Below, in pieces: positions 22,250-45,591 of a DNA stretch of 45,591 nt (the stretch's first letter is position 1; each line of letters begins with the position of its first letter). The notes below the pieces were generated by a model, which had not been told where the DNA came from, ran no database searches, and saw nothing but the letters and a program-made list of their open reading frames with translations. Position numbers and translations under genes: made by a program. Location: contig CAZDKA010000002.1 of assembly GCA_964505815.1 (NCBI GenBank), forward strand, positions 1-45,591, written 5' to 3'. Origin of the DNA: an uncultured Candidatus Saccharibacteria bacterium (GTDB taxonomy: Bacteria > Patescibacteriota > Minisyncoccia > Sungbacterales > SURF-37).

Positions 22250-24772
22250 TTACACTACAAAGTTGATGAGCTTGTTTTTAACGAAGATTACTTTTTGGGG
22301 AACGCCTGGAACATATTTTCTGACCACGGGATTCTCAAGCGCCATTTTCCGCGCCTCGTCTTCTGATGCGCCCGTTCCTGCTGTAAGTGTTGCCCGGACC
22401 CTGCCGTTGACTTGCACGACAAGCGGGAAGGTTTCCTCCATCAAGTAGCTACTTTCAAATTTCGGCCAGGGCGAGCGGTGAATGCTTGTTTTGTTGCCGA
22501 GAGAACTCCAAAGTTCTTCGCTGATGTATGGGGCAAACGGGGCGAGCAGCTTCAAAAATATTTCCGCATCGCCGCGCGTAACTCCACCTCGTCCGGAGGT
22601 AAGTTCGTTAAGAAGCACCATAAGAGCGGAGATTGCGGTATTATACCGCAATCCTTCAATATCCTCGGTGACTTTTTTGATGGTTTTGTGGATAAATCGG
22701 TCTAAAGACGAACGACCAACGCCAAAAGCTGCTTTTGTCTTTTGTCTTTTGTCTTTTGTCCGTTGATATAACTTCCATACTCGTTCCAAAAACCGGGTAA
22801 TGCCGCGGATGCCGGTATCTCTAAAATCGCCGCCCTGCTCAAACGGCCCCAAAAACATCAAATACATCCTAAGGGCATCTGCGCCATAGAGTTTAATGTA
22901 TTCGTCGGGGTTGACCACGTTGCCTCGGGACTTGGACATCTTTGCTCCATCCTTGATAAGCAAGCCGTGCGCGCGGAACTTTTTGAACGGCTCATCAAAT
23001 TTAGCAAGACCCCAGTCGTGAAAGGCCATAGTCAAGAAACGCGTGTAGAGAAGATGCAATACGGCATGCTCCGCTCCGCCGATATAGATATCAACCGGAA
23101 GCCACTTTCTTGCCCTGAGCCCATCGAAGAGTTGTTTTTTGTTGCGAACATCAATGTAACGGTAGTAATACCAAGCCGAATCAAGAAACGTATCCGAAAC
23201 GTCTGTCTCTCTCCGCGCAATTTTTCCGCAGTCCGGACATTTGACGCGGAAGAAGGACGGCGCCTCGGCAAGCGGCGACTGGCTCGTGCCGGTAGGCCTG
23301 AAATCTTTGATGAACGGCAGTTTCACCGGCAGATCTTTTTCGGAAACGGAGTACCATCCCGGCATGTCTTTCTTCTCGCCTCTTCCTTTTTGGGCGCACT
23401 CGTCGCAAAAAATCATTGGGATGGGCGGGCCCCAATAGCGTTGTCTAGAAATCAGCCAATCGCGGAGCCGATACTGCGTTTTAAATTTTGCTTTCAAGCT
23501 CTCGGCAACGAGACGCCGCGCCTCCTGCGAGCGCATCCCGTTTGCCCATCCGGAGTTCAGAAGCCGCCCCTCGGCAAGATACGGGGCTCGCAACACTCCA
23601 TGTGAGGCGCCGTCGTCGGATATGACTTCGCGGATCGGCAGATTGAATTTTTTGGCAAACTCAAAGTCGCGCTCGTCATGTCCCGGTACGGCAATAATCG
23701 CGCCCGTGCCTACTCCTCCCAAAACATAATCGGAAACCCATATGGGTATTACTTCGCTATTCGCGGGGTTTATGGCGTATGAGCCGAGAAACGCTCCGGT
23801 TTTGCTTTTTGTCGCGTCAGTCCTTTCTATTTCGTCTTTCTTGGCGGCTTCGCGGAGATAACTTTGAACCGCGTCTTTGCGCTCTTTGGTAATGAGCCCT
23901 GCTAACAGCGGGTGCTCGGGTGAGAGCACCATGTAGGTTGCCCCGAACAAGGTGTCGGCTCGGGTGGTAAACACTTCAATAAACGCTGATTCACGCGGAT
24001 CTATGCGCGGATTATCGCTGATTCTGGTTCTGCGTTGATCCGCGTTGTAATCTGCGTTTATCTGCGTAGCGATTGGGAATTTAATAAGGGCCCCATCGCT
24101 GCGGCCGAGCCAGTTTCTTTGGGCGATTTTTACATTTTCCGACCAGTCAATTTTTTCTAAATTATTCAGCAGCCGTTCGGCATACGCGGTGATTTTGAAG
24201 AACCATTGCTCAAGCTCGCGTTTAATCACCTTTGTCTCGCATCTCTCACACTCGCCGGCCAGCACCTGTTCATCGGCAAGAACAGTTAGACACGACGGAC
24301 ACCAGTTAACCGCGGCTTTTTTGCGATAGGCCAGACCGCGCTTGAACATCTCGACGAAAATCCACTGGGTCCATTTGTAATAATCCGGGCGATAGGTCGC
24401 GAGGCGCTCTTTCCAGGCAAAACCGTTGCCGATCATTTGAAGCTGGTCGTAGAAGCGCTTCTCGGAAACTTCGGCCTGCTTCATGGGATGGACGCCGACT
24501 TTCAGGGCGTAGTTTTCGGAATGGATGCCAAAGCCGTCAAGGCCGATCGGTTCAAAAACATCATAACCCTGCATGCGTTTTGCTCGGCCGTAAATATCGG
24601 CGCCGACAAAAGCATACATGTTGCCGACGTGCAGGCCTTCGGCCGAGGGGTAAGGAAACATCATCAGATTATAGAATGGTTTTTTGGCCCGCTTAAAATC
24701 GGGCTCGTAAGTTCCCCTGGCCAGCCACCTTTTCTGCCATTTCTCCTCAATCTGTTTCGGCTGATAACGCAT
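22250..24772 (-). CDS. leuS: Leucyl-tRNA synthetase
   Basis: Start taken at MRYQPKQIEEKWQKRW. HIGH-like PYPSAEGLHVGN, VFTTRADTLFGATY, KMSKSRGNVV. Confidence 0.95.
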   Translation of the reverse strand: MRYQPKQIEEKWQKRWLARGTYEPDFKRAKKPFYNLMMFPYPSAEGLHVGNMYAFVGADIYGRAKRMQGYDVFEPIGLDGFGIHSENYALKVGVHPMKQAEVSEKRFYDQLQMIGNGFAWKERLATYRPDYYKWTQWIFVEMFKRGLAYRKKAAVNWCPSCLTVLADEQVLAGECERCETKVIKRELEQWFFKITAYAERLLNNLEKIDWSENVKIAQRNWLGRSDGALIKFPIATQINADYNADQRRTRISDNPRIDPRESAFIEVFTTRADTLFGATYMVLSPEHPLLAGLITKERKDAVQSYLREAAKKDEIERTDATKSKTGAFLGSYAINPANSEVIPIWVSDYVLGGVGTGAIIAVPGHDERDFEFAKKFNLPIREVISDDGASHGVLRAPYLAEGRLLNSGWANGMRSQEARRLVAESLKAKFKTQYRLRDWLISRQRYWGPPIPMIFCDECAQKGRGEKKDMPGWYSVSEKDLPVKLPFIKDFRPTGTSQSPLAEAPSFFRVKCPDCGKIARRETDVSDTFLDSAWYYYRYIDVRNKKQLFDGLRARKWLPVDIYIGGAEHAVLHLLYTRFLTMAFHDWGLAKFDEPFKKFRAHGLLIKDGAKMSKSRGNVVNPDEYIKLYGADALRMYLMFLGPFEQGGDFRDTGIRGITRFLERVWKLYQRTKDKRQKTKAAFGVGRSSLDRFIHKTIKKVTEDIEGLRYNTAISALMVLLNELTSGRGGVTRGDAEIFLKLLAPFAPYISEELWSSLGNKTSIHRSPWPKFESSYLMEETFPLVVQVNGRVRATLTAGTGASEDEARKMALENPVVRKYVPGVPQKVIFVKNKLINFVV

Positions 24773-24811
24773 AATGCTTATCATTATACGCATCGCGTAA
24801 GCGTAAATTCA

Positions 24812-28501: not shown

Positions 28502-29989
28502 TCAGCCCAAACGGGGGAACAACGCTTCCCCTTTTTTTATTTTCAAAACCGAATCGTCAATGCTGATTTGCGTTTTTATTTTTTCTGCGCTTTCCGGAAG
28601 AAAAGGCGATAAAAGAGCGGTAATCGTAGAAATCAAATAGCCGGCGTTAAGCAGAGTTCGACGAAGTTCGTTCTCGTTTTTTTCGGCCCACGGTTTTTTT
28701 TCGTTGATGTATTTGTCGGCAAAAGAGACCAAACGCCACAGATTCGCCAGCGCCTCGTTTAAACGTATTTCTGCGATATGGCCCTCATATGACTTAAATA
28801 CTTCGGTGGATATTTTTTTTATTTCAGCGTCAATATCGGCCTCAAAATTAAAATGGAGCGGGCTTAAATTTTGGCCGAGCGCGGCTGCTCTTGAAACCAG
28901 GTTGCCAAGGCCGTTGGCCAAATCGCCGTTGTAGCGCTCTTCAAATTTTTTGTAACTGAAGTCTCCGTCTTCATAAGATGGAAATTCTCTTAAAAAGTAG
29001 TATCTCACCGGATCGGCCCCGTATTTCTTAACCACTTCTTCTGGCGCTATAACATTGCCAACGGTTTTAGAAATCTTCTGTCCATCCACGTTTACAAATC
29101 CATGAACAAAAAGGGTCCTCGGGAGGAGAAGGCCGGCCGAAAGAAGCATACCCGGCCAAATGGCAGCATGGAAGCGCAGATTGTCTTTTCCAACCACTTG
29201 AGCATCAGCGGGCCACCATCTTTGAAACAGCTCAACGGACTCCAAATCTTCTCGGCCATAGCCAATAGAAGAGATATAATTTGTCAACGCTTCAAGCCAC
29301 ACATACATGGTCTGCGTTGAATCATCTGGAACGGGAACGCCCCAGGGAATATCACTGCTTGGCCGAGAAATACTCACATCTTCAAGGCCGCTCTTTATAA
29401 ATGACAATATCTCATTCTTTCGTGATTCTGGTATGACTCGGAGCTCGTCCGAGACAACTTTTTTCTCAATGCGTTCCGCGTATTTTGAAAGTCTGAAAAA
29501 CCAGTTTTCCTCCTCAATAACTTCTGGCTCTTTTTGATGATCCAAACACCTGCCATTTACTAGATCTTTTTCGGTTATAAACGCCTCGTGTCCCACACAG
29601 TAAAGCCCTCTGTATTTTTTCCAATAAATATCCCCGGAATCCTTTAGTGCCCGCCACAATTTCTGCGCCCCCGGCCAGTGGCGTTTTTGATCGGAGGTAC
29701 GGATGAAATCATCCCAGGCAATATTAATAATTTTGTGCATTTCTTTGTACTTTTCTGAATTTTCGTCCACAAGTTCCTTGGGGGTTTTGCCAAGATCCTC
29801 AGCAGTCCGTACAACTTTAGCGCCGTGCTCGTCCGTACCGACCAAAAATCTAACTTCATCGCCCTTTGTTCTGCGGTATCGTGAAAGGACATCCGCAATA
29901 AGCGGATCCAAAATGTGCCCGAGATGGGGCGGGGCCGTAGCATATGGGATGCTCGTGGTGATATAAAACTTTTGCTTTGCGCTTGACAT
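28502..29989 (-). CDS. metG: Methionyl-tRNA synthetase (short form)
   Basis: IPYATAPPHLGHILD (HIGH), KISKTVGNV (KMSKS), C-terminal GEALFPRLG. Confidence 0.95.
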   Translation of the reverse strand: MSSAKQKFYITTSIPYATAPPHLGHILDPLIADVLSRYRRTKGDEVRFLVGTDEHGAKVVRTAEDLGKTPKELVDENSEKYKEMHKIINIAWDDFIRTSDQKRHWPGAQKLWRALKDSGDIYWKKYRGLYCVGHEAFITEKDLVNGRCLDHQKEPEVIEEENWFFRLSKYAERIEKKVVSDELRVIPESRKNEILSFIKSGLEDVSISRPSSDIPWGVPVPDDSTQTMYVWLEALTNYISSIGYGREDLESVELFQRWWPADAQVVGKDNLRFHAAIWPGMLLSAGLLLPRTLFVHGFVNVDGQKISKTVGNVIAPEEVVKKYGADPVRYYFLREFPSYEDGDFSYKKFEERYNGDLANGLGNLVSRAAALGQNLSPLHFNFEADIDAEIKKISTEVFKSYEGHIAEIRLNEALANLWRLVSFADKYINEKKPWAEKNENELRRTLLNAGYLISTITALLSPFLPESAEKIKTQISIDDSVLKIKKGEALFPRLG

Positions 29990-30713: not shown

Positions 30714-31415
30714 TCAAACAAAAGCAAAATGTTTTCTTATGTCATCGTCATGCACAATATGATTCGTCTCAACTAATCGAACATACTCGCCAACGCCGTA
30801 AAGAGAGATAATAAACTCTAGTTCCTCATTGCAGGGATACGGAAACACGAAAACGCTCCTCTGAAGCGAATAAAAACCTATTGCTTTCAACTTTTCTCGA
30901 AATCCTTCACGCGCTGATTTGTGTGTATCAGGAATATCGAATACGACTATGCGCCATGTGCCGTCCCACAAATCCGGTCTCCGGATTATAAATGTGTTGT
31001 ATGCTCTTTGGATGGCTCGTTTTTCTCCTAACTTCGTAAGGCTAATTTCATATTCATTTTCATTTATCTTCGAAGCGGAAACAAAATTTTGTTTCTTAAG
31101 AACGGCGAGCTCGCGTTGAAAATACCCACTATGCATATATGTTCGATATATTCTTCTGCCGCGCATACGTCCGAAGGCGCTAAATATATTGGGGGCGGCA
31201 GCAGCAACAGTAAGCGCTCCAGCAACTAGAAGCAAGGCGAGAAGCCCCTTACCAAATGCAATGCCTCCCGCTTTTGCCGCACGAATCATATCTTCTCGTT
31301 TCGTTGCCTTTTCGGCTTCTGCCCATTCTTGCCGCATGTGCCTTATAAAAAACTCCCTGTGATCTAAAAGGCGTGGAATAATTTTCTTCTCGTATTTTCT
31401 CTTCGTACCAGTCAT
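30714..31415 (-). CDS. Membrane-anchored PaaX-like protein (winged helix plus Cas2-like central domain), paralog A
   Basis: TM segment GLLALLLVAGALTVAAAAPNIFSAFGR. Wing-like YEISLTKLGEKRA. WDGTWRIVVFDIPDTHKSAREGFREKLKAIGFYSLQRSVFVFPYP follows the PaaX/Cas2-like pattern. Paralog of 42235..42963. Confidence 0.6.
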   Translation of the reverse strand: MTGTKRKYEKKIIPRLLDHREFFIRHMRQEWAEAEKATKREDMIRAAKAGGIAFGKGLLALLLVAGALTVAAAAPNIFSAFGRMRGRRIYRTYMHSGYFQRELAVLKKQNFVSASKINENEYEISLTKLGEKRAIQRAYNTFIIRRPDLWDGTWRIVVFDIPDTHKSAREGFREKLKAIGFYSLQRSVFVFPYPCNEELEFIISLYGVGEYVRLVETNHIVHDDDIRKHFAFV

Positions 31416-34076: not shown

Positions 34077-34550
34077 TTAAAGGAAAAACTCCTCTACAAC
34101 GGCTGTTTCGCCGTCGGGATAAAATTTCTTGATCTCTTTTGTTATGCGGAACCCAAATTTTTTAACGAGTAAAGAAATAATCGGCTTATTGCTTGTGCGG
34201 GAGGTGGCGTTTATGGATTTAAAATTGCCGAGCCGGGCATACGACATAACCCAGGAAACTAACAACTCACCAAGTCCATTTCTGCGAAAACCGGGGATAA
34301 TTCCGATACTCGTCAGGTGGAGCGCTCCAGGCCGTCGGGCATGCGTATAGGTTTTATAATTATAAAGTCCGGTGTGAGGCTGGACCGAAACGTAACCGAT
34401 TGATTTTTTATTCACAAAAAGGATAAAATTCTGATATTTTTTCCAGCTTTCTTTATAGATCTGGTCTGATAAGTCGGGAAAACTAAGCTTGTCGAGCCGG
34501 TCCAAAATTTTTATGTCCCGCGGTACAACGGCCTTTTTAATCTCAATCAT
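34077..34550 (-). CDS. GNAT-family N-acetyltransferase
   Basis: Acetyl-CoA motif FRRNGLGELLVSWV. ATGA-type overlap with the glyQS stop. Confidence 0.75.
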   Translation of the reverse strand: MIEIKKAVVPRDIKILDRLDKLSFPDLSDQIYKESWKKYQNFILFVNKKSIGYVSVQPHTGLYNYKTYTHARRPGALHLTSIGIIPGFRRNGLGELLVSWVMSYARLGNFKSINATSRTSNKPIISLLVKKFGFRITKEIKKFYPDGETAVVEEFFL

Positions 34551-35863
34551 ATCTTTTTCTTAAAATATGCTGTCAATCCTTCAACATCAACTCTCTCCTG
34601 CTTCATTGTGTCCCGATCTCTTACGGTCACCATATCATCCTCCAGCGTTTGGAAGTCCACGGTCACACACCACGGCGTCCCGATTTCATCTTGAGCATAA
34701 TATCTTTTCCCTATATTACCCCGTTCGTCCCAAGCCGCAATAAAATTGCGCTTTAAATTATAAAATATACTCTTTGCTTTGTCAACAAGCTGCGGCTTGT
34801 TGGCCAATAACGGGAAGACAGCAACGGTAACCGGCGCAAGACGCGGCGGAAACTTAAGCAAAGCCCGATCCTTTTCTTCGGCATAATGGGCAGCGAGTAG
34901 CGCGAGGGCCGTCCGTTCCACCCCGAATGTCGGCTCAATCACATGCGGCACGATTTTCTCTTTTTTTTCCTCGTCGTAATAAACAAGCTCTGTTCCGGAC
35001 GCTTTGGCGTGCCCGGTGAGGTCAAAATCGGTGCGATAGGCAAGGCCGTAAAGCTCCTCGCGGCCGAATGGAAAATCAAAATCAATATCCACGGTTCGCT
35101 TTGAATAGTGAGCTCGCTCCTCGGTCAGCACCTCACGCTCCACAACTCTCTTGTGAATGCCCAAAAATTCAAGCCACCTGCGCATCTCGCCGAGCCAATA
35201 CTCAAAACTCGCCTGCCATTCTTTCTCGTGGATAAAATATTCAATCTCCATCTGCTCAAACTCTCTTATGCGGAAAACAAAATTGCCCGGAGTTATTTCA
35301 TTCCGAAAGGCCTTGCCGATCTGGGCAATGCCGAAAGGCAATTTCGGATGCATAGAGTCCAAAATATTTTTAAAATTCACGAACATACCTTGCGCTGTCT
35401 CCGGCCGAAGATAAGTTTCGGCCGCCGTATCTTCCACCGGCCCAACGTAGGTTTTAAACATCATGTTGAACGGCCGGGCCTCGGTAAAATCCTTCTTGCC
35501 GCAGTTCGGACAGCCTTTTTTGAGATCAATCTTATCGGCGCGAAAACGGCTTTTGCATGACTTGCAATCCACCATAGGGTCAACGAAATTTTTGACATGG
35601 CCCGAGGCCTCCCAAACTTTGGCGTTCATTAAAATCGCGGAATCAACCCCGTACATGTCTTCTCGCTCGCCTACGAACATCCGCCACCATTCGCGCTTGA
35701 TGTTGTTTTTGAGCTCTGTGCCGAGCGGCCCCCAGTCCCACGTGCCGCCAAGGCCGCCGTAAATTTCTGAACCGGGAAAAATAAAACCCCGCCTTTTCGC
35801 TAAGGAAACAACTTTATCCATTACTCCGTTTTCGGTTACTTCTTTTTTCTTCATAAATTTCAT
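34547..35863 (-). CDS. glyQS: Glycyl-tRNA synthetase (dimeric GlyQS type)
   Basis: RRGFIFPGSEIYGGLGGTWDWGPLG, CKSCKSRFRAD, FRNEITPGNFVFRIREFEQMEIE. Confidence 0.95.
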   Translation of the reverse strand: MKFMKKKEVTENGVMDKVVSLAKRRGFIFPGSEIYGGLGGTWDWGPLGTELKNNIKREWWRMFVGEREDMYGVDSAILMNAKVWEASGHVKNFVDPMVDCKSCKSRFRADKIDLKKGCPNCGKKDFTEARPFNMMFKTYVGPVEDTAAETYLRPETAQGMFVNFKNILDSMHPKLPFGIAQIGKAFRNEITPGNFVFRIREFEQMEIEYFIHEKEWQASFEYWLGEMRRWLEFLGIHKRVVEREVLTEERAHYSKRTVDIDFDFPFGREELYGLAYRTDFDLTGHAKASGTELVYYDEEKKEKIVPHVIEPTFGVERTALALLAAHYAEEKDRALLKFPPRLAPVTVAVFPLLANKPQLVDKAKSIFYNLKRNFIAAWDERGNIGKRYYAQDEIGTPWCVTVDFQTLEDDMVTVRDRDTMKQERVDVEGLTAYFKKKI

Positions 35864-38008: not shown

Positions 38009-38593
38009 TTAAGCGAGATGCTCGGCAAAAAGACGCGATGTAACCTCATCAAGCCGTCTTACCTCGGAGGCCTCCCCGACGGTTGCAAATTCGGCGCATG
38101 GCAGGAGAAGGCATCTTGATGTTGGCTCGGAAAAAAGACCGAGTTCGTCAAGGAAGCGAGCGCGGAACCAAACGAGCCCTGCTTTCTGCTCCTCGGAGCC
38201 AAGTGTCGGGCCATTAAGCAGGTCCAGCATTTCTAAAGCTACAGCAAAAAAATTTCCGTTTTCTTCACGGCGATCCTCAAAAAGCGCGCTGCCTACGGCC
38301 CCAAATATTTCAGAAGCGGCCCTTAGTCGGAACGGATCGCTCTTGATTGCCGGGAAAAAATTAAGAAGCTCCGCGCCGACCAGACGGTAATTATTCCTTC
38401 CGGCAACAAATGAAAGCCGCGAAAGGGAAAGCGGTTCAAGATGACCCTTGAGTTTTGCTTCAACTTTGCGCGCTCCTTGGGCAATGAGCCGAATATTCAC
38501 AAATCGGTCGGTCAGCGCAGTAATCAAAAGATCGGCCTCGCCGAGTTCTTCTTTCCTGAGAATGATTGCGTCAGTTACGTGCATAGTGTTCAC
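38009..38593 (-). CDS. recO: DNA repair protein RecO (short form)
   Basis: AIILRKEELGEADLLITALT ... EPLSLSRLSFVAGRNNYRLVGAE matches the RecO OB-fold N-terminus. ATGA-type overlap with the ileS stop. Confidence 0.7.
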   Translation of the reverse strand: MNTMHVTDAIILRKEELGEADLLITALTDRFVNIRLIAQGARKVEAKLKGHLEPLSLSRLSFVAGRNNYRLVGAELLNFFPAIKSDPFRLRAASEIFGAVGSALFEDRREENGNFFAVALEMLDLLNGPTLGSEEQKAGLVWFRARFLDELGLFSEPTSRCLLLPCAEFATVGEASEVRRLDEVTSRLFAEHLA

Positions 38594-41500
38594 GCTCTAT
38601 CAATCCCTACCCAAAGCTCGTGGCCGTCAATAGAGAGCTCGCGCTCAACCGCAAACACTTTCTTGCCGCCGAGCGTAAAAATTTTGGCGCCGGTTTCTTT
38701 TTCAACAAATTTCTTAGAGCGCTCCAGCATCTTAAGCATCTCCGCGTCTCCCGCGGCCTGTAGTTTTATAGGGTGCTCTGGCCGAAGGCCCAGGTCTTTT
38801 CTCATCTCCTGGACATTCCGCACAAACTCTCTAAGCCATCCCTCTTCACGGAGTTCCGGGGTAATTTCGGTATCAAGCTCAACCTCGCCGGCTATTGTTT
38901 CGTCTCTTACGATTTCTTTCACGTTCACCTCGTCTCTAACTACATCCAACAACTCCTTGCTCAACGTTACACTCTTCACCTTAGCCGTCCTTAAGGGTTG
39001 ACGAACTTTTATTCCGTGCTTTGCGCGCTCGGCAAGGATGAGTGCTACAAGGGCGCGGGCTTCGTGCATCTCGTAGAATTCAAACTCTACCGCTTTGACT
39101 TGCGGCCACGGCCGGAGGTGCACACTATTTTCTTTCAGTCCAAATTTCGGTTTTAGTTCCTGATAAATAATCTCAGCAAGAAAAGGAGTAAAGGGCGCTA
39201 CAAGCTCCGCGAGACGAAGAAGAGCCCAACCGGTTATCGCCGCCGCTTCATCCTTGTCGGCCTTTGATGCTGGTTTCTGGAAGCGGCGGCGTGACCTACG
39301 CAAATACCAATTCGAGAAATCGTCTAGAAGGAACCCTTCCAAATGCCGGGCGGCACCAACAACGTCGTAGGCATCAAGAAGCTTTCCAACAAGATTGCTG
39401 TAATATTCAAGTCGCCCGACCAGCCAACGGTCAAGAACAGTCGTTGCTCTGTGCCGCTGAATTTTCTTTCTTGGCACCTTGTCCACGTATGTATCAAAAA
39501 GCACGAAGCTGTTCCAAAGTGTTGCCAGCGGCCCGCGCAGTTTATTCAAAAGGTCTTTCTCATCAAAACGCTTTGGCTCGCCCGGGGGATTCGCGGTGAA
39601 GAAATACCAGCGGATGGTGTCAGCGCCGTATTTCTTCATCATCTCCCACGGATCCACCACGTTGCCTTTGGACTTAGACATCTTCTGACCGTTTTTATCA
39701 AGAACATGCCCCAGGGAAATTACATGGCGAAAGGGCGCCCCTTTTTCAAGAAGAGTCGCGACGGCCAAAAGGGTATAAAACCAGCCGCGCGTCTGATCAA
39801 CGCCTTCGGCGATAAAGTCGGCCGGATACAATAATTTTTCTTTTTGATTTTTGATTTTTGATTTTTGATTTTGAGCCCAAGCGAATGGGTAATGAGCTTG
39901 GGCGAACGGCATCGCCCCCGAGTCAAACCAAACGTCTGCCACATCTTTAACCCTCTCCATCTTGCCGCCGCAGGCCTGCCCGCCGGAAAGGCCTGACTTA
40001 CAGATAAGCCGCACCTCGTCAATAAATGGCCGGTGCAGATTCACTTCGCCCGAGTTGTCGCGAGGCAAATTTAAAAATTTGATGGGCTGAACTCCGGCAA
40101 GGCCTATGTAATCCTCTTTTCTGCCGCGTAATTTTATGATGCCGTCGCGGTCGAGGCCTCGGGATGCGCCGTCCAAAATCCAAATCGGATACTCATGGCT
40201 TATGATAAGAATTTTTTTGTTGCGGTATTTCCGGTCAATGTCCTGCATGAAACCCATCAGGCGGGCTCTCAAGTCAGAAAGCGACTCTCCTTCCGGCGGG
40301 GCTTTCGCAAAATACTCCTCGGCCGAGGAATAAAAGCCGTTATACTCTTTTGTCGGCCGGCCGTTGAATATGCCTACATTAATTTCCCGAACCCTTGTGT
40401 CTTTCAAAACCTCTTTAACGCCCAAAACCTCGGCGACAATTCGTGCGGCCTCTGTGGTACGGAGAACATCGGAGTGAATGATGATATCAATATTTTCTTT
40501 TTTTAATTTTTCCGCGGCCAATCTGATCTGCTCTTTGCCTAGATCGGTCATGTGGTATTTTGAGTTCGAGTCCGCGACAATACCCAAGAGCTGGGTTTCT
40601 GACTCGCCGTGGCGCAGAGCAAAATAAGTGTTGCCGGAACTTTTTGCTCTTCCGGCAAGTTCCTCAAGCGAGCTCAACGCTTCAACTGCTTTACACTTAG
40701 TGCATTCCCATATGGGCAAAGGCGTTCCCCAGTAGCGCTCTCTGGAAAAAGCCCAGTCGCGAAGTTCCGAGAGAAATTCGCCGAAGCGTCCGTCTTTTAT
40801 ATGCTCCGGAACCCAGTCGATGGTCTGGTTATTTTTAATCAGTTCCTGTTTAATTTTCGTCATCCGCACCCACCATGAATTTCTCGCGTAATAAAGAAGC
40901 GGCGTTCCGCATCGCCAGCAATGGGGATATTCGTGTTCATACGGCAAAATAGCAAAGAGCAGTTTTCTTTTTTTTAGGTCTTCCACAATGACCTTGTCGG
41001 CCTCCTTAACGAACTTTCCCTCGCCTATAACTCCTTTTTTCATCCTGCCGTCAGGATCAACCGTCTCCAGTATCGGATAGTCGCCCGAGTATTCTTTTTT
41101 CATCGCCGCCATATCCTCTTCCCCGTATGCCGGAGCAAGATGCACGAAACCCGACCCTTCTTCGGTAGAAACAAAATCCGCTCCGTAAACGCGGTAAGGG
41201 GGCGCTACTGTTCCGTAGTCGGAAGCCGGGGCATAGAGCGGCTCGTATGAGAGGCCGACTAGCGCCTTGCCGGAAACTTTCTCGGTAATTTCCGGAGAGG
41301 CCCCTTTGGCATCATAGGGCGGAACATTTGCCGACCATACAAACTCGTTGCCGATTTTAAACTTGGTGTATTCCGTTGTCGGGTTAACGGCAACGGCGAC
41401 GTTGGCCGGAAGAGTCCAAGGCGTCGTGGTCCAGACCAGCAGCGATTCGTTTTTTCTGTCTTTGATTTTTAAGCGGACGAAAACTGAATCCTCCTTTACT

Positions 41501-42102
41501 TTTATATACGCTCCGGGCTGGCCAAGTTCGTGCGAAGAAAGGCCGGTCTGGCACCTGGGGCACCACGGAATGATTTTAAAATCCTTATAAAGGAGACCTT
41601 TCTTCCAAATTTCTTTAATAATCCACCAGAGAGTTTCGATATAACTCGTCTCATAGGTAATATATGGATGCTCTAGATCAAGCCAAAAACCGATTCGCTT
41701 GGTCAAGCGCTCCCACTCTTCTTTAAAACGCCATACCGACTCGCGGCACTTCTCGTTGAACTCAGCAATACCGTAATGTTCAATGTCTTTTTTTGTCTTT
41801 AGGCCGAGTTCCTTTTCAACTTGAAGTTCCACCGGCAGACCATGCGTGTCCCAGCCGGCTTTTCTCAAAACCTGAAAACCGCGCATGGTCTTGTAGCGCG
41901 GAATTATGTCCTTGAAAGCTCGCGACTCAACATGGTGAATGCCAGGCGCGGCGTTAGCCGTCGGCGGCCCCTCATAAAAAATAAACGGCTTGCCCCGCTT
42001 GGTTTTTTGCAGGCTCTTCTCGAAAATCCTCTCCCGCTCCCAGAATTCAAGAATTTTTTGCTCTCTTCCAGGGAGATTGAATACCTGTTTCTTTTGCATC
42101 AT
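38590..42102 (-). CDS. ileS: Isoleucyl-tRNA synthetase (1170 aa) carrying an inserted domain
   Basis: PPTANAAPGIHHV (HIGH), WTTTPWTLPAN, CWRCGTP, KMSKSKGNVV, DQTRGWFYT. Confidence 0.95.
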   Translation of the reverse strand: MMQKKQVFNLPGREQKILEFWERERIFEKSLQKTKRGKPFIFYEGPPTANAAPGIHHVESRAFKDIIPRYKTMRGFQVLRKAGWDTHGLPVELQVEKELGLKTKKDIEHYGIAEFNEKCRESVWRFKEEWERLTKRIGFWLDLEHPYITYETSYIETLWWIIKEIWKKGLLYKDFKIIPWCPRCQTGLSSHELGQPGAYIKVKEDSVFVRLKIKDRKNESLLVWTTTPWTLPANVAVAVNPTTEYTKFKIGNEFVWSANVPPYDAKGASPEITEKVSGKALVGLSYEPLYAPASDYGTVAPPYRVYGADFVSTEEGSGFVHLAPAYGEEDMAAMKKEYSGDYPILETVDPDGRMKKGVIGEGKFVKEADKVIVEDLKKRKLLFAILPYEHEYPHCWRCGTPLLYYARNSWWVRMTKIKQELIKNNQTIDWVPEHIKDGRFGEFLSELRDWAFSRERYWGTPLPIWECTKCKAVEALSSLEELAGRAKSSGNTYFALRHGESETQLLGIVADSNSKYHMTDLGKEQIRLAAEKLKKENIDIIIHSDVLRTTEAARIVAEVLGVKEVLKDTRVREINVGIFNGRPTKEYNGFYSSAEEYFAKAPPEGESLSDLRARLMGFMQDIDRKYRNKKILIISHEYPIWILDGASRGLDRDGIIKLRGRKEDYIGLAGVQPIKFLNLPRDNSGEVNLHRPFIDEVRLICKSGLSGGQACGGKMERVKDVADVWFDSGAMPFAQAHYPFAWAQNQKSKIKNQKEKLLYPADFIAEGVDQTRGWFYTLLAVATLLEKGAPFRHVISLGHVLDKNGQKMSKSKGNVVDPWEMMKKYGADTIRWYFFTANPPGEPKRFDEKDLLNKLRGPLATLWNSFVLFDTYVDKVPRKKIQRHRATTVLDRWLVGRLEYYSNLVGKLLDAYDVVGAARHLEGFLLDDFSNWYLRRSRRRFQKPASKADKDEAAAITGWALLRLAELVAPFTPFLAEIIYQELKPKFGLKENSVHLRPWPQVKAVEFEFYEMHEARALVALILAERAKHGIKVRQPLRTAKVKSVTLSKELLDVVRDEVNVKEIVRDETIAGEVELDTEITPELREEGWLREFVRNVQEMRKDLGLRPEHPIKLQAAGDAEMLKMLERSKKFVEKETGAKIFTLGGKKVFAVERELSIDGHELWVGIDRA
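40063..40638 (-). other. Histidine-phosphatase (phosphoglycerate-mutase-like) domain inserted inside ileS
   Basis: Residues ~489-680: YFALRHGESETQ (RHG motif), HSDVLRTTEAA, ILIISHEYPI (second His). They lie between WECTKCKAVE and NLHRPFIDEV. Confidence 0.7.
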
Positions 42103-42234: not shown

Positions 42235-42963
42235 TCACTTCTTTAGGCCAAAAAATTCTTTGAGATCATCGTCGAAGTTGATGACTCTCGTCTCTACGTA
42301 GCGAAGATGGCCGCCCAGGTCGTACAGCCTCCTCAAAAACTCAATTTCCTCCCTACACGGATACGGAAAAACGAAGGTGCTTTTTTGAAGAGGGCAAAAG
42401 CCCATATTCTTTAGACATCGCCGCAGGCCATCCCTAGCCCATTTATCCCCCTCCGGGACATCAAAAAACACCAACCGCCAGATGCCGTCCCATTTTTCTG
42501 GGCGCAGAACTTTTAAGCCCCAAAACGCCCGTTTCGCTAACTGCTCTTGACCTAACTTGGTAAGCCGAACTTCCCTTGTTTCGTCTTCGGTCTTTACGAC
42601 GCTCACATAACCTCGCCGTTTGAAATAAGTTATTTTATTTTCAAAATCTTTCCGATGAAAATAGCGCCTGTGCTTGCCGAGCCGGCCAAACGCCGAAAAG
42701 ATGTTTGGCGCAACCGCACCCACTATCAAAATCCCGCACACCGCAGCCATACCTAAAATAGTAAGCCCCAAAACCGTTCCGGTTTCTTTCAGCGTTTCGC
42801 GCCGTCTGAGTTTACGCGCGTCTCTTTCAACCAATCTTTCCGCCTCCTCCCATTCTCTTTTAAGATGTTCAACGATAAAACGGCGGTTTTCCCGATTCTT
42901 AACTGCCCGTTTCACGAGTTTACTCTCATATCCTCTTTTAAAAATCTTCTTTCCTGTCCCCAT
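42235..42963 (-). CDS. Membrane-anchored PaaX-like protein (winged helix plus Cas2-like central domain), paralog B
   Basis: Start at MGTGKKIFKRGYE (ATG 42963). The 16 upstream codons of the track ORF are the palindrome itself. APNIFSAFGR and WDGIWRLVFFDVPEGDKWARDGLRRCLKNMGFCPLQKSTFVFPYP. Confidence 0.6.
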   Translation of the reverse strand: MGTGKKIFKRGYESKLVKRAVKNRENRRFIVEHLKREWEEAERLVERDARKLRRRETLKETGTVLGLTILGMAAVCGILIVGAVAPNIFSAFGRLGKHRRYFHRKDFENKITYFKRRGYVSVVKTEDETREVRLTKLGQEQLAKRAFWGLKVLRPEKWDGIWRLVFFDVPEGDKWARDGLRRCLKNMGFCPLQKSTFVFPYPCREEIEFLRRLYDLGGHLRYVETRVINFDDDLKEFFGLKK

Positions 42964-42968
42964 AGTTA

Positions 42969-42994
42969 AAAACTTACGCGATCGCGTAAGTTTT
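42969..42994. repeat. Palindrome family B, copy 3 (26-bp perfect core)
   Basis: AAAACTTACGCGA|TCGCGTAAGTTTT, ending 5 nt from the ATG at 42963. Confidence 0.9.
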
Positions 42995-43013
42995 AACAAG
43001 AGTGAAAACATAG

Positions 43014-44046: not shown

Positions 44047-45591
44047 CTACATTTTTAAAGGTGCAGAAACGCCTAAAAGACCCAATGTATTTTGTAGCAC
44101 GATTTGGGTTGCCTTGACAAGGGCGAGCCGAGCGCCAGTTAAATCTTTATCTTCGGTAATAACCCGGTGCTGTTCGTAAAAATTATGAAATGCGCGGGCA
44201 AGCTCTGTGGCATAGCGGGCTATGCGAATCACTTGCAAATCCTGCGCCGCATCTTCAACTATTTCTGGAAATTGAATCAATTTTTTTATCAAGAATAATT
44301 CTTCTTTCGAATTAAGCTTTTTGAATTTTGAATTGTCATTTTGAATTTTGAATTTTGAATTTTGAATTCTTTGTAAGATGCCTCTGCATCTTACATATGC
44401 GTACTGCACGTAATAGACCGGATTTTTAACCGAGCGCTCTTTGGCAAGTTCCAGGTCAAAATCCATATGCGAGTCGGGAGTATGCATCAAAAAGAAAAAC
44501 CGCGCGGCATCTAGCCCGACTTCGTCAATCAGTTCTTCAAGGGTTATGAATACACCCTTGCGCTTGGACATTTTTACTTCAACCCCGCCGCGCACCAGCC
44601 GAATCAGTTGGGTGATGATGATTTTGAACTTTTCTTTTGGAACGCCGAGGGCTGAAAGAGCCCCGGATAGACGCTGGGCATAGCCGTGGTGATCCGCACC
44701 CCAGATATCAATCGCCCTGTCAAATTTGCGAACGAAGAATTTGTTGAGGTGGTAAGCGAGATCCGGCAGAAAATAAGTCGGCTCGCCGCCGGATCTGACA
44801 AGCACCCTGTCCTCCGAGTCGCCGAAACCCTTGGAGCGGAACCACACCGCGCCATCCTGCTCATAACTCAGACTCTTTTCTTTGAGTGAAACAAGAACCT
44901 GCCCGACCGCATTTATTTTGTAAAGCGACTCCTCTGAGAAAAATCTGTCAAAAGAAATATGCGCCTTATTTTTGAGAAATGCGGTGTTTTGTTTCTGAAT
45001 TTCCAGGCCCAATAGATGTCCGGCTTCACCCGAAAGATTTGCTGCGCCCTTTTTCTCGAGTTTGGATATTTTCGGCTTCAATTTGGCAATGATTTTTTTA
45101 ACTTCAGGCGTCAAATATGTCGTGCCATCGCCAAGAGCGGTTTTCCCGAGTTCTTTAATCTGGGTTGAGTTCTTGGCGTCATTGACGTAGTACTCCCTGG
45201 TAACGTCAAAACCCGCGAAAGCAAGAGTGTTAGAAACAGCATCGCCGTAAAACCCTCCTCTTCCGTTGCCGAGAGTCAGCAGGCCGGTTGGATTGGCTGA
45301 AACAAACTCAACATTGACCCTTTCTTTTTTATTCTCGCCTTGGCCGTAAGATTTTCCGCGCTTGAGCGCTACCCTTAACTCGTCAAAAATAGCTTCCTTG
45401 GAAAGCCAGAAATTAATAAAACCCTGAGGCGGGGCCTCAATTTTATCAAAAAGCGCAGAGGCGCCCAGACCCGTTACGATGGCACGAGCTACATCGGCAG
45501 TCGGTTTTTTGAAATTTTTTGCAAGCACCAGTGCGGCGTTTGTAGAATAATCGCCGTGCGCCGTATTTTCCGGAACTTCAACAGAAAAATC
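44047..45591 (-). CDS. argS: Arginyl-tRNA synthetase, N-terminus cut by window edge
   Basis: The frame stays open to base 45591 (DFSVEVPENTAHGDYSTNAALVLAK); the track M at 45528 is an internal GTG. SANPTGLLTLGNGRG, KMSKRKG, C-terminal DALR-type anticodon-binding region. Confidence 0.95.
   Translation of the reverse strand, partial: DFSVEVPENTAHGDYSTNAALVLAKNFKKPTADVARAIVTGLGASALFDKIEAPPQGFINFWLSKEAIFDELRVALKRGKSYGQGENKKERVNVEFVSANPTGLLTLGNGRGGFYGDAVSNTLAFAGFDVTREYYVNDAKNSTQIKELGKTALGDGTTYLTPEVKKIIAKLKPKISKLEKKGAANLSGEAGHLLGLEIQKQNTAFLKNKAHISFDRFFSEESLYKINAVGQVLVSLKEKSLSYEQDGAVWFRSKGFGDSEDRVLVRSGGEPTYFLPDLAYHLNKFFVRKFDRAIDIWGADHHGYAQRLSGALSALGVPKEKFKIIITQLIRLVRGGVEVKMSKRKGVFITLEELIDEVGLDAARFFFLMHTPDSHMDFDLELAKERSVKNPVYYVQYAYVRCRGILQRIQNSKFKIQNDNSKFKKLNSKEELFLIKKLIQFPEIVEDAAQDLQVIRIARYATELARAFHNFYEQHRVITEDKDLTGARLALVKATQIVLQNTLGLLGVSAPLKM

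Follow-up and report, generated by a model that had tools for sequence, protein, structure and literature searches.

A histidine-phosphatase domain nested in the isoleucyl-tRNA synthetase of a groundwater Patescibacteria bacterium

One sentence in Kantor et al. 2013 (mBio 4:e00708-13; PMC3812714) describes phosphoglycerate mutase (PGM) domains that split an isoleucyl-tRNA synthetase (IleRS) of the candidate phyla radiation (CPR; SR1/ACD80). It is the only mention found in the literature on IleRS with histidine phosphatase, phosphoglycerate mutase, or CPR, and a 2026 study on how the domains of IleRS evolved contains no mention of CPR, CP3, or phosphatase. Public databases already hold hundreds of IleRSs annotated with the histidine-phosphatase family PF00300. 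Here, we describe an enzyme of this kind, P0001, encoded by the ileS gene of an ultra-small groundwater Patescibacteria bacterium. The gene lies on a 45,591-nucleotide stretch of DNA (contig CAZDKA010000002.1, assembly GCA_964505815.1), and "the window" refers below to this whole stretch. The IleRS-phosphatase kind has been noted in print (2013) and in databases and has never been characterized, and the window contributes a further member. The sequence-only reading of this DNA, which knew of no described aminoacyl-tRNA synthetase (aaRS) with an embedded phosphatase-fold domain, was not quite right, given the 2013 report and the annotated database proteins.

The subdomain concerned, CP3, lies at the surface and has a variable topology across IleRSs (PMC7191050, PMC7955072). 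CP3 of the Thermus thermophilus enzyme has a zinc motif (PMC7191050), the linker between CP2 and CP3 contributes to the pocket for tRNA A76 in yeast IleRS (PMC7955072), and CP3 of human IARS1 is a protein-interaction surface (PMC13439101).

A phosphatase domain in the CP3 zinc-knuckle loop

The window encodes a complete IleRS whose reading frame is uninterrupted across the insert, with the following parts and signature residues.

38590..42102, minus strand: ileS, a complete type-2 IleRS with nested phosphatase (open reading frame of 1170 amino acids [aa] plus stop codon)
40642..42102, minus strand: IleRS N-terminal part, aa 1-487, aligning to residues 9-481 of 1ILE
40069..40641, minus strand: nested branch-1 histidine-phosphatase domain, aa 488-678 (191 aa), defined by PF00300 and insert-less relatives
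38593..40068, minus strand: IleRS C-terminal part, aa 679-1170, aligning to residues 490-821 of 1ILE, with Pfam Anticodon_1 and DUF5915
41932..41943, minus strand: GIHH, a non-canonical class I HIGH signature, aa 54-57 (translation and homolog alignment)
40693..40704, minus strand: CTKC, the first Cys pair (Cys467, Cys470) of the CP3 zinc knuckle (translation)
40606..40614, minus strand: RHG motif with Arg497, His498 (predicted phospho-acceptor nucleophile), and Gly499 (translation and conservation)
40459..40461, minus strand: Arg548, second arginine of the phosphate pocket (in 202/202 fused homologs; codon checked)
40384..40386, minus strand: Glu573, predicted general acid (186 Glu and 16 Asp of 202)
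40195..40197, minus strand: His636, second catalytic histidine, in the SHEYPIW motif (202/202; codon checked)
39970..40002, minus strand: second Cys pair of the CP3 knuckle, Cys701...Cys711 (translation and homolog alignment)
39670..39684, minus strand: KMSKS signature, aa 807-811 (K807 and K810 invariant among homologs)

The proposal, made from the sequence alone, that a domain is truly inserted in this IleRS was borne out by the alignment to 1ILE, by contigs that span the junctions, and by the same site in 202 homologs. Residue 487 of P0001 pairs with residue 481 of 1ILE and residue 689 with residue 490, which leaves about 200 residues in place of about 8. The borders of the insert, aa 488-678, were set by natural insert-less relatives (P0244, P0254, and P0291); those first proposed, 40063-40638 (aa 489-680), fall within two codons of 40069-40641, and the strings quoted at the time (WECTKCKAVE, YFALRHGESETQ, HSDVLRTTEAA, ILIISHEYPI, and NLHRPFIDEV) are all present in the translation. 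The insert lies in the zinc-knuckle loop of CP3, directly after the CP2-CP3 linker, and is flanked by Cys467-x2-Cys470 and Cys701...Cys711, the counterparts of the zinc motif in T. thermophilus CP3. On the N-terminal side, the junction from W465 to R497 measures 31-32 residues in 191 of the 202 fused proteins, and the linkers around the insert were modeled with high confidence by AlphaFold2 (AF2) in the full-length protein.

The cysteines of the knuckle vary among homologs. The positions of Cys467 and Cys470 are each Cys in 64-65 of 88 homologs, the second pair has the form C-x9-C here (CKSGLSGGQAC) and C-x2-C or C-x-C in most relatives, and all four are missing in about one-quarter of relatives.

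The insert matched Pfam His_Phos_1 (PF00300) over aa 496-651 with an E value of 4.7e-29 and 101.9 bits, compared to a cut-off of 21.7. Modeled on its own with AF2, the domain is predicted to be folded, with a predicted local distance difference test (pLDDT) score of 96.9 and a predicted template modeling (pTM) score of 0.92; within the full-length model its pLDDT was 87-98. Foldseek matched the domain with a probability of 1.00 and template modeling (TM) scores of 0.73-0.78 to 4IJ6, 6S2Q, 4QIH, 1H2E, and 9MMH, and the PGM of Schizosaccharomyces pombe (1FZT) was also among the top structures. By sequence, the best solved relative was PspA (4IJ5, E 1.2e-14). The profile, model, and structural matches thus agree with the initial identification of the extra segment as a histidine-phosphatase domain of the PGAM superfamily.

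The RHG and second-His signatures recognized at the outset are present as R497-H498-G499 and H636. Arg497 and His498 occur in 202 of 202 fused homologs and Gly499 in 185; Ser544 and Arg614 are likewise invariant in this set, and Asn491 was found in 200 of 202. Glu573 pairs with the catalytic Glu of PspA (4IJ5). Overall identity of the insert to the window copy is 30-68%, with a mean of 41% (88 first-found homologs), and the domain family has motifs of its own, N-x-Y-F-x-x-R-H-G and S-H-E/G-Y/D-P-I/L-W. The PF00300 score, the RHG motif, the second Arg and His with an acidic donor, and the alpha/beta fold place the insert in branch 1 of the histidine phosphatases. Because the catalytic residues are kept in all 202 fused homologs, with Glu573 as Glu or Asp, the nested domain is apparently an active phosphomonoesterase; the alternative once offered for it, a degenerate structural module, is at odds with this conservation. 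A free-standing relative, P0157, has SSEGP instead of SHGDP and has lost the second catalytic His, and it may be an inactive copy.

An assembly chimera or annotation artefact could in principle have joined a phosphatase into ileS, a general risk of metagenome assemblies for which no specific support was found here. The frame is unbroken, and the G+C content of the insert (0.47-0.49) is no different from that of the remaining ileS. Moreover, single contigs of two independent groundwater runs span 39848-40900, including both junctions, with 0 and 4 differences and with no joints and no indels, and the same site and architecture recur in more than 200 independently assembled proteins. The junction-spanning contigs and the 202 homologs refute the chimera, to which we assign next to no probability.

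The host enzyme is an ordinary bacterial IleRS2 member. P0001 scored 830.6 bits against the ileS equivalog TIGR00392 (cut-off 621.4), in a match that is split in two pieces with the His_Phos_1 match between them. Its closest PDB entries are 1ILE and the IleRS2 of Priestia megaterium; in Foldseek, the TM score to 1ILE was 0.93 (target-normalised), with P. megaterium IleRS2 again among the top matches. The full-length AF2 model has a mean pLDDT of 91.5 and a pTM of 0.87. Residues 1-487 contain the first Rossmann half, the CP core, the CP1 editing domain, CP2, and the first half of CP3 with Cys467 and Cys470. Residues 679-1170 comprise the second half of CP3 (Cys701, Cys711), the second Rossmann half with KMSKS, the anticodon-binding domain, and a type-2 C-terminal domain, the organisation of which is marked by Pfam DUF5915 at aa 1041-1169. 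The editing motifs of CP1, namely WTTTPWT (224-230) and G316/H321/D330, are invariant in the homolog alignment. With GIHH, KMSKS, and intact CP1 motifs, the synthetase part of P0001 is, as far as its residues indicate, fully equipped.

The HIGH motif has the form G-x-H-H in 57 of 88 homologs and the canonical H-x-G-H in 29. The G/AXHH form in IleRS2 leads to mupirocin hyper-resistance (Brkic et al. 2023; PMC10485003). Because both forms occur among the 88 homologs, the motif evidently switches inside this CPR clade as well. P0001 was also compared with the mupirocin-resistance enzymes MupA/MupB (NF000257/NF000258) and scored 731-740 bits against an exception cut-off of 1900, which makes it a relative and not a member. 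Inside ileS, at 39841-39872 (aa 745-754), the heptanucleotide TTTTTGA is repeated perfectly in tandem (x 4.6). The repeat encodes a loop, QNQKSKIKNQK, that T. thermophilus IleRS does not have and that was modeled with a pLDDT below 50. Contigs of four public runs end at this repeat, at a k-mer depth of 6,000-28,000, and the gain or loss of one unit would frameshift an essential gene.

Fused, split, duplicated, and lost forms

A survey of IleRSs for the same insertion, as recommended in the sequence-only reading, found PF00300 in 117 of the 120 proteins nearest by their N-terminal part and the insert at the same site in 32 of 35 species-representative genome loci. Searching with the insert only returned 88 IleRS-length proteins, all of which had PF00300. 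A profile-free search with the insert across 1.84 billion representatives gave 778 matches at E ≤ 1e-10; the best 150 of these were mostly IleRSs or pieces of IleRSs that have the domain in the same position, and about 45 were proteins of about 190 aa that stand alone. Source names of the fused homologs are Paceibacteria/Parcubacteria, the closest being a Sungbacteria protein with 71% identity, and other sources included Harrison-, Zambryski-, Lipton-, Niyogi-, Vogel-, and Giovannonibacteria.

Every free-standing phosphatase for which a contig was examined neighbors an insert-less ileS. At seven of these loci (L037-L039, L040, L041, L033, and L035), the phosphatase gene is directly upstream of ileS, between argS and ileS, and overlaps or abuts the ileS start; at another (L042), the two genes are convergent. 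A metagenome scan for the standalone form, built on an 8-sequence alignment, returned 530 relatives, the best 80 of which were classified; its single pattern, [IVL][IV]SHGD[PA]LW, biases this sample towards one subgroup. In 54 of the best 80 loci, ileS follows immediately downstream in the same orientation, in many cases with an overlap, and a further locus has it 449 bp away. No ileS was visible in the remaining 25, about 16 of which come with 1 kb or more of flanking sequence and have unrelated neighbors, and adjacency to ileS amounts to about 77% of the informative metagenomic loci. The genes beside the unlinked copies (M23 peptidase, HI0933-like flavoprotein, Sua5, PD-(D/E)XK nuclease, and NYN domain) had no common theme.

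Loss was observed as well. Three insert-less IleRSs are nested in fused clades (supports 0.95-0.996), each with a precise deletion and otherwise identical synteny, and tblastn found no phosphatase gene or remnant within 10 kb of these three loci. In the IleRS tree, split-type synthetases are scattered over at least 4-5 clades among fused ones, whereas in the domain tree 83 of 86 standalone phosphatases form one clade (support 0.877) nested among inserts. The trees thus disagree on the number and direction of fusion and fission events. Both midpoint-rooted trees are explained more parsimoniously by a fused ancestor that later underwent fission or loss; we do not claim a direction.

The module has also been duplicated and carried elsewhere. 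It occurs at the C terminus of an arginyl-tRNA synthetase (ArgRS; P0153, aa 505-673) and in four copies in a ValRS-like protein (P0114). Two IleRSs have tandem copies (P0160 and P0187), and a third, of 1419 aa (P0238), carries an additional copy elsewhere, on the C-terminal side of the first. The phosphatase module has thus been a partner of the argS-ileS locus in Paceibacteria and related Patescibacteria alike, most of which have it fused in CP3; a separate gene at the ileS start is the state in others, and the remaining arrangements are occasional.

Possible roles of the nested phosphatase

We compared the insert with models of named phosphatases. The best NCBIfam phosphatase match was the archaeal-type cofactor-dependent PGM (dPGM_arch, NF038349; E 5.3e-24), at 85.2 bits versus a cut-off of 225. 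The mycobacterial RnhC model (NF005567) was second best (E 3.6e-19). The CobC alpha-ribazole phosphatase model (TIGR03162) gave 60.8 bits (cut-off 162.9), and the PspA phosphoserine phosphatase model (NF045917) gave 60.9 (cut-off 350). In addition, Val576 stands opposite His85 of PspA, which we take to be the specificity-determining position of that enzyme. None of the curated equivalog cut-offs among the NCBIfam phosphatase models was reached and, because of this, the guest domain is, as judged from profile scores, a separate subfamily of the histidine phosphatase superfamily, outside the characterised subfamilies.

These comparisons bear on the idea that ileS simply encodes the organism's cofactor-dependent PGM, or else a named enzyme of another kind, for example phosphoserine phosphatase or alpha-ribazole phosphatase. 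CPR bacteria ferment and need lower glycolysis, the dPGM model ranks first with the CobC and PspA models following, and S. pombe PGM is among the top structural matches, all of which would fit. However, the scores fall far under the cut-offs, Val576 replaces the PspA histidine, and the H-E/G-Y/D-P-I/L-W motif after the second His is peculiar to this family. We therefore regard a named enzyme as improbable.

We lean, tentatively, toward the domain being an active small-molecule phosphomonoesterase with its own substrate, tethered to IleRS as a housekeeping passenger and taking part in no aminoacylation step. Such an enzyme would be of the PhoE/PspA/GpgP/CobC kind, acting on a metabolite or nucleotide. 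A phosphatase gene beside ileS would have become nested in the tolerant CP3 loop, giving co-expression, and a 1:1 ratio with IleRS would be held by fusion or by translational coupling. In this superfamily, a phosphoryl group is transferred to the histidine of RHG, two arginines and the second histidine grip the phosphate, and an acid protonates the leaving group. By analogy, His498 would take the phosphoryl group while Arg497, Arg548, and His636 hold the phosphate; Glu573 would protonate the leaving group, and water would then free the phosphate. Hydrolysis of a phosphomonoester is to be expected from sequence and model, because all catalytic residues of the family are present.

The passenger role draws on the natural variants. 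The phosphatase is not required by IleRS, as three clean losses in fused clades attest, and because the synthetase works without the domain in those lineages, the phosphatase would perform no aminoacylation step. Conversely, the phosphatase is autonomous: there are standalone orthologs of 190 aa, and about 16 metagenomic loci have no ileS nearby and unrelated neighbors. The nearest characterised relatives all act on small phosphoesters, which favors a passenger as well.

Several observations weigh against a mere passenger. Linkage to class I synthetases (54 of the best 80 loci) exceeds what simple hitch-hiking would lead one to expect, and the same domain is found in ArgRS (P0153), in the ValRS-like protein (P0114, four copies), and at a second IleRS site (P0238). 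The constant N-side junction and the confidently modeled linkers suggest a fixed geometry. Finally, no curated cut-off that would assign a substrate was reached.

The same observations could point to a phosphatase that is integrated with class I aminoacylation, that is, a third active site beside synthesis and editing that acts on something IleRS handles, which we consider possible and rather doubtful. With equal reserve, its candidate substrates would be a blocking 2'/3'-phosphate or pyrophosphate on tRNA A76, a nucleotide by-product such as AMP or an Ap4A-derived product, or a phosphorylated inhibitor or adenylate mimic directed against the synthetase. The sequence-only reading had put forward a nucleotide or aminoacyl-adenylate-related substrate as a possibility. 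In favor of integration, a whole radiation is dominated by fused proteins whose catalytic residues do not vary, and the split gene stays next to ileS in 54 of the best 80 loci, or about 77% of those that are informative. Fusion has recurred with three class I synthetases, tandem copies occur as well, and the junction geometry is constrained (31-32 residues in 191/202). The insert also follows the CP2-CP3 linker, which is part of the A76 pocket in yeast IleRS (PMC7955072), and the SR1 IleRS of Kantor 2013 carries a Nudix and two PGM domains (PMC3812714). On the other side, the domain was lost cleanly without local replacement, unlinked standalone copies exist, and none of the close superfamily relatives that were found acts on RNA ends. 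Gene adjacency accounts for the ArgRS fusion, split genes may have stayed side by side for historical reasons and not through selection, and the LeuRS, MetRS, ArgRS, and class II synthetase of the same window are without the domain.

Generalized, this would mean that class I synthetases of Patescibacteria have a third catalytic site, at which a nested or co-translated phosphatase works on the synthetase's own substrate stream, a proposal that we find fairly unlikely. Before charging, the phosphatase could, for example, free the tRNA acceptor end of a 2'/3'-phosphate or pyrophosphate that blocks it; alternatively, it could act at the synthetic site and destroy a by-product or inhibitor that is phosphorylated.

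The domain might instead bind a phosphorylated metabolite, either to sense it or to regulate IleRS allosterically, or might be a platform for docking; catalysis would then be secondary or absent. CP3 serves protein interaction in human IARS1 (PMC13439101), conserved phosphate-pocket residues double as ligand-binding residues, and the modeled geometry is rigid. Yet the nucleophilic His and the general acid (E/D573) are both kept and would be needless for ligand binding alone, standalone and unlinked orthologs keep the same residues, and IleRS tolerates loss of the domain. We give a sensor or platform little credence.

Domains added to aaRSs have repeatedly proved functional, among them editing domains, appendages that bind tRNA, and signalling modules. 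In the present case, the catalytic body of an essential synthetase contains an apparently active enzyme of another class, throughout a large bacterial radiation, and the natural fused, split, duplicated, and deleted forms are ready-made controls. Translation would gain a new quality-control or repair step if the phosphatase were to act on tRNA or on something that the synthetase produces, and work on the substrate stream would make it the first histidine phosphatase superfamily member directed at nucleic acids or translation. As a passenger, it would be a clear case of extreme genome streamlining that nests one gene in another, with CP3 as landing pad.

Neighboring genes and comparison with known systems

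Around ileS, the window is rich in synthetase genes, with five aaRS genes within 23 kb (22250-45591), all on the minus strand; among these five synthetases, only IleRS has the phosphatase domain. No tRNA genes were found in the window. The neighbors are as follows.

44047..45591, minus strand: argS, running off the window end (Pfam Arg_tRNA_synt_N, tRNA-synt_1d, DALR_1)
38009..38593, minus strand: recO-like gene directly downstream of ileS, a syntenic marker (Pfam RecO_N, E 2.9e-13)
34547-35863, minus strand: class II ProRS-like gene
28502-29989, minus strand: methionyl-tRNA synthetase (MetRS)
22250-24793, minus strand: leucyl-tRNA synthetase (LeuRS)
42235-43011, minus strand: small protein with a PaaX central/Cas2-like domain (PF20803; E 9e-20)
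30714-31415, minus strand: paralogous small protein with PF20803 (E 1e-21)

The block argS, (phosphatase), ileS, recO is conserved, and the same order was found in L036, L037, L040, L043, and L044. One of the two PF20803 genes is directly upstream of ileS, a position that the standalone phosphatase or a small ORF occupies in relatives. In related loci, the syntenic block constantly includes a NUDIX hydrolase gene, a few genes upstream of argS-ileS (L036, 3031-3480; L037, 3260-3697; L043, 4694-5158; L044, 1974-2456). The SR1 IleRS has a Nudix insertion beside its PGM domains (PMC3812714).

Like P0001, the SR1 enzyme is a Patescibacteria IleRS interrupted in frame by domains of the PGM superfamily. 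It has Nudix and two PGM domains and thereby four IleRS segments (PMC3812714), whereas P0001 has one PF00300 stretch, and a Pfam scan found no Nudix domain in it. Unlike the SR1 IleRS of Kantor 2013, P0001 belongs to a Paceibacteria/Sungbacteria-like group.

Among small branch-1 phosphatases, PspA (4IJ5/4IJ6), GpgP Rv2419c (4PZ9/4QIH/6S2Q), PhoE (1H2E/1EBB), HFP (9MMH), and CobC (6E4B/6NRU) have in common with the insert the fold and the R-H-G/R/E/H residues, at a similar size (about 190-210 aa), with TM scores of 0.73-0.78 and 21-25% identity. These enzymes (Hydrogenobacter PspA, mycobacterial GpgP, Bacillus PhoE, the riboflavin-pathway HFP, and CobC) are free-standing with known small substrates, whereas the insert is nested, is without an equivalent of PspA His85, and has its own motifs flanking the RHG and the second His. 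Mycobacterial RnhC/Rv2228c (NF005567) likewise joins a CobC-like histidine phosphatase of the same subgroup to a nucleic-acid enzyme. It differs in being an end-to-end fusion with an RNase H as partner, and the insert scores 69 against its cut-off of 326.

A precedent for an IleRS with a second enzyme domain is ileS_w_GNAT (NF040702), although its guest is a GNAT N-acetyltransferase in another IleRS lineage and P0001 scores 264 against a cut-off of 1999. The solved IleRS2 structures from T. thermophilus (1ILE/1JZQ) and Priestia megaterium (8C8U/8C8V/8C9D) represent the same enzyme as P0001, with TM scores of 0.80-0.93 (target-normalised). They have in common with it the CP1 editing domain, C-terminal domains of type 2, and the G/AXHH motif, and T. 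thermophilus also the CP3 zinc knuckle. Solved IleRSs carry nothing in the CP3 loop, whereas P0001 has 191 residues there in place of about 8.

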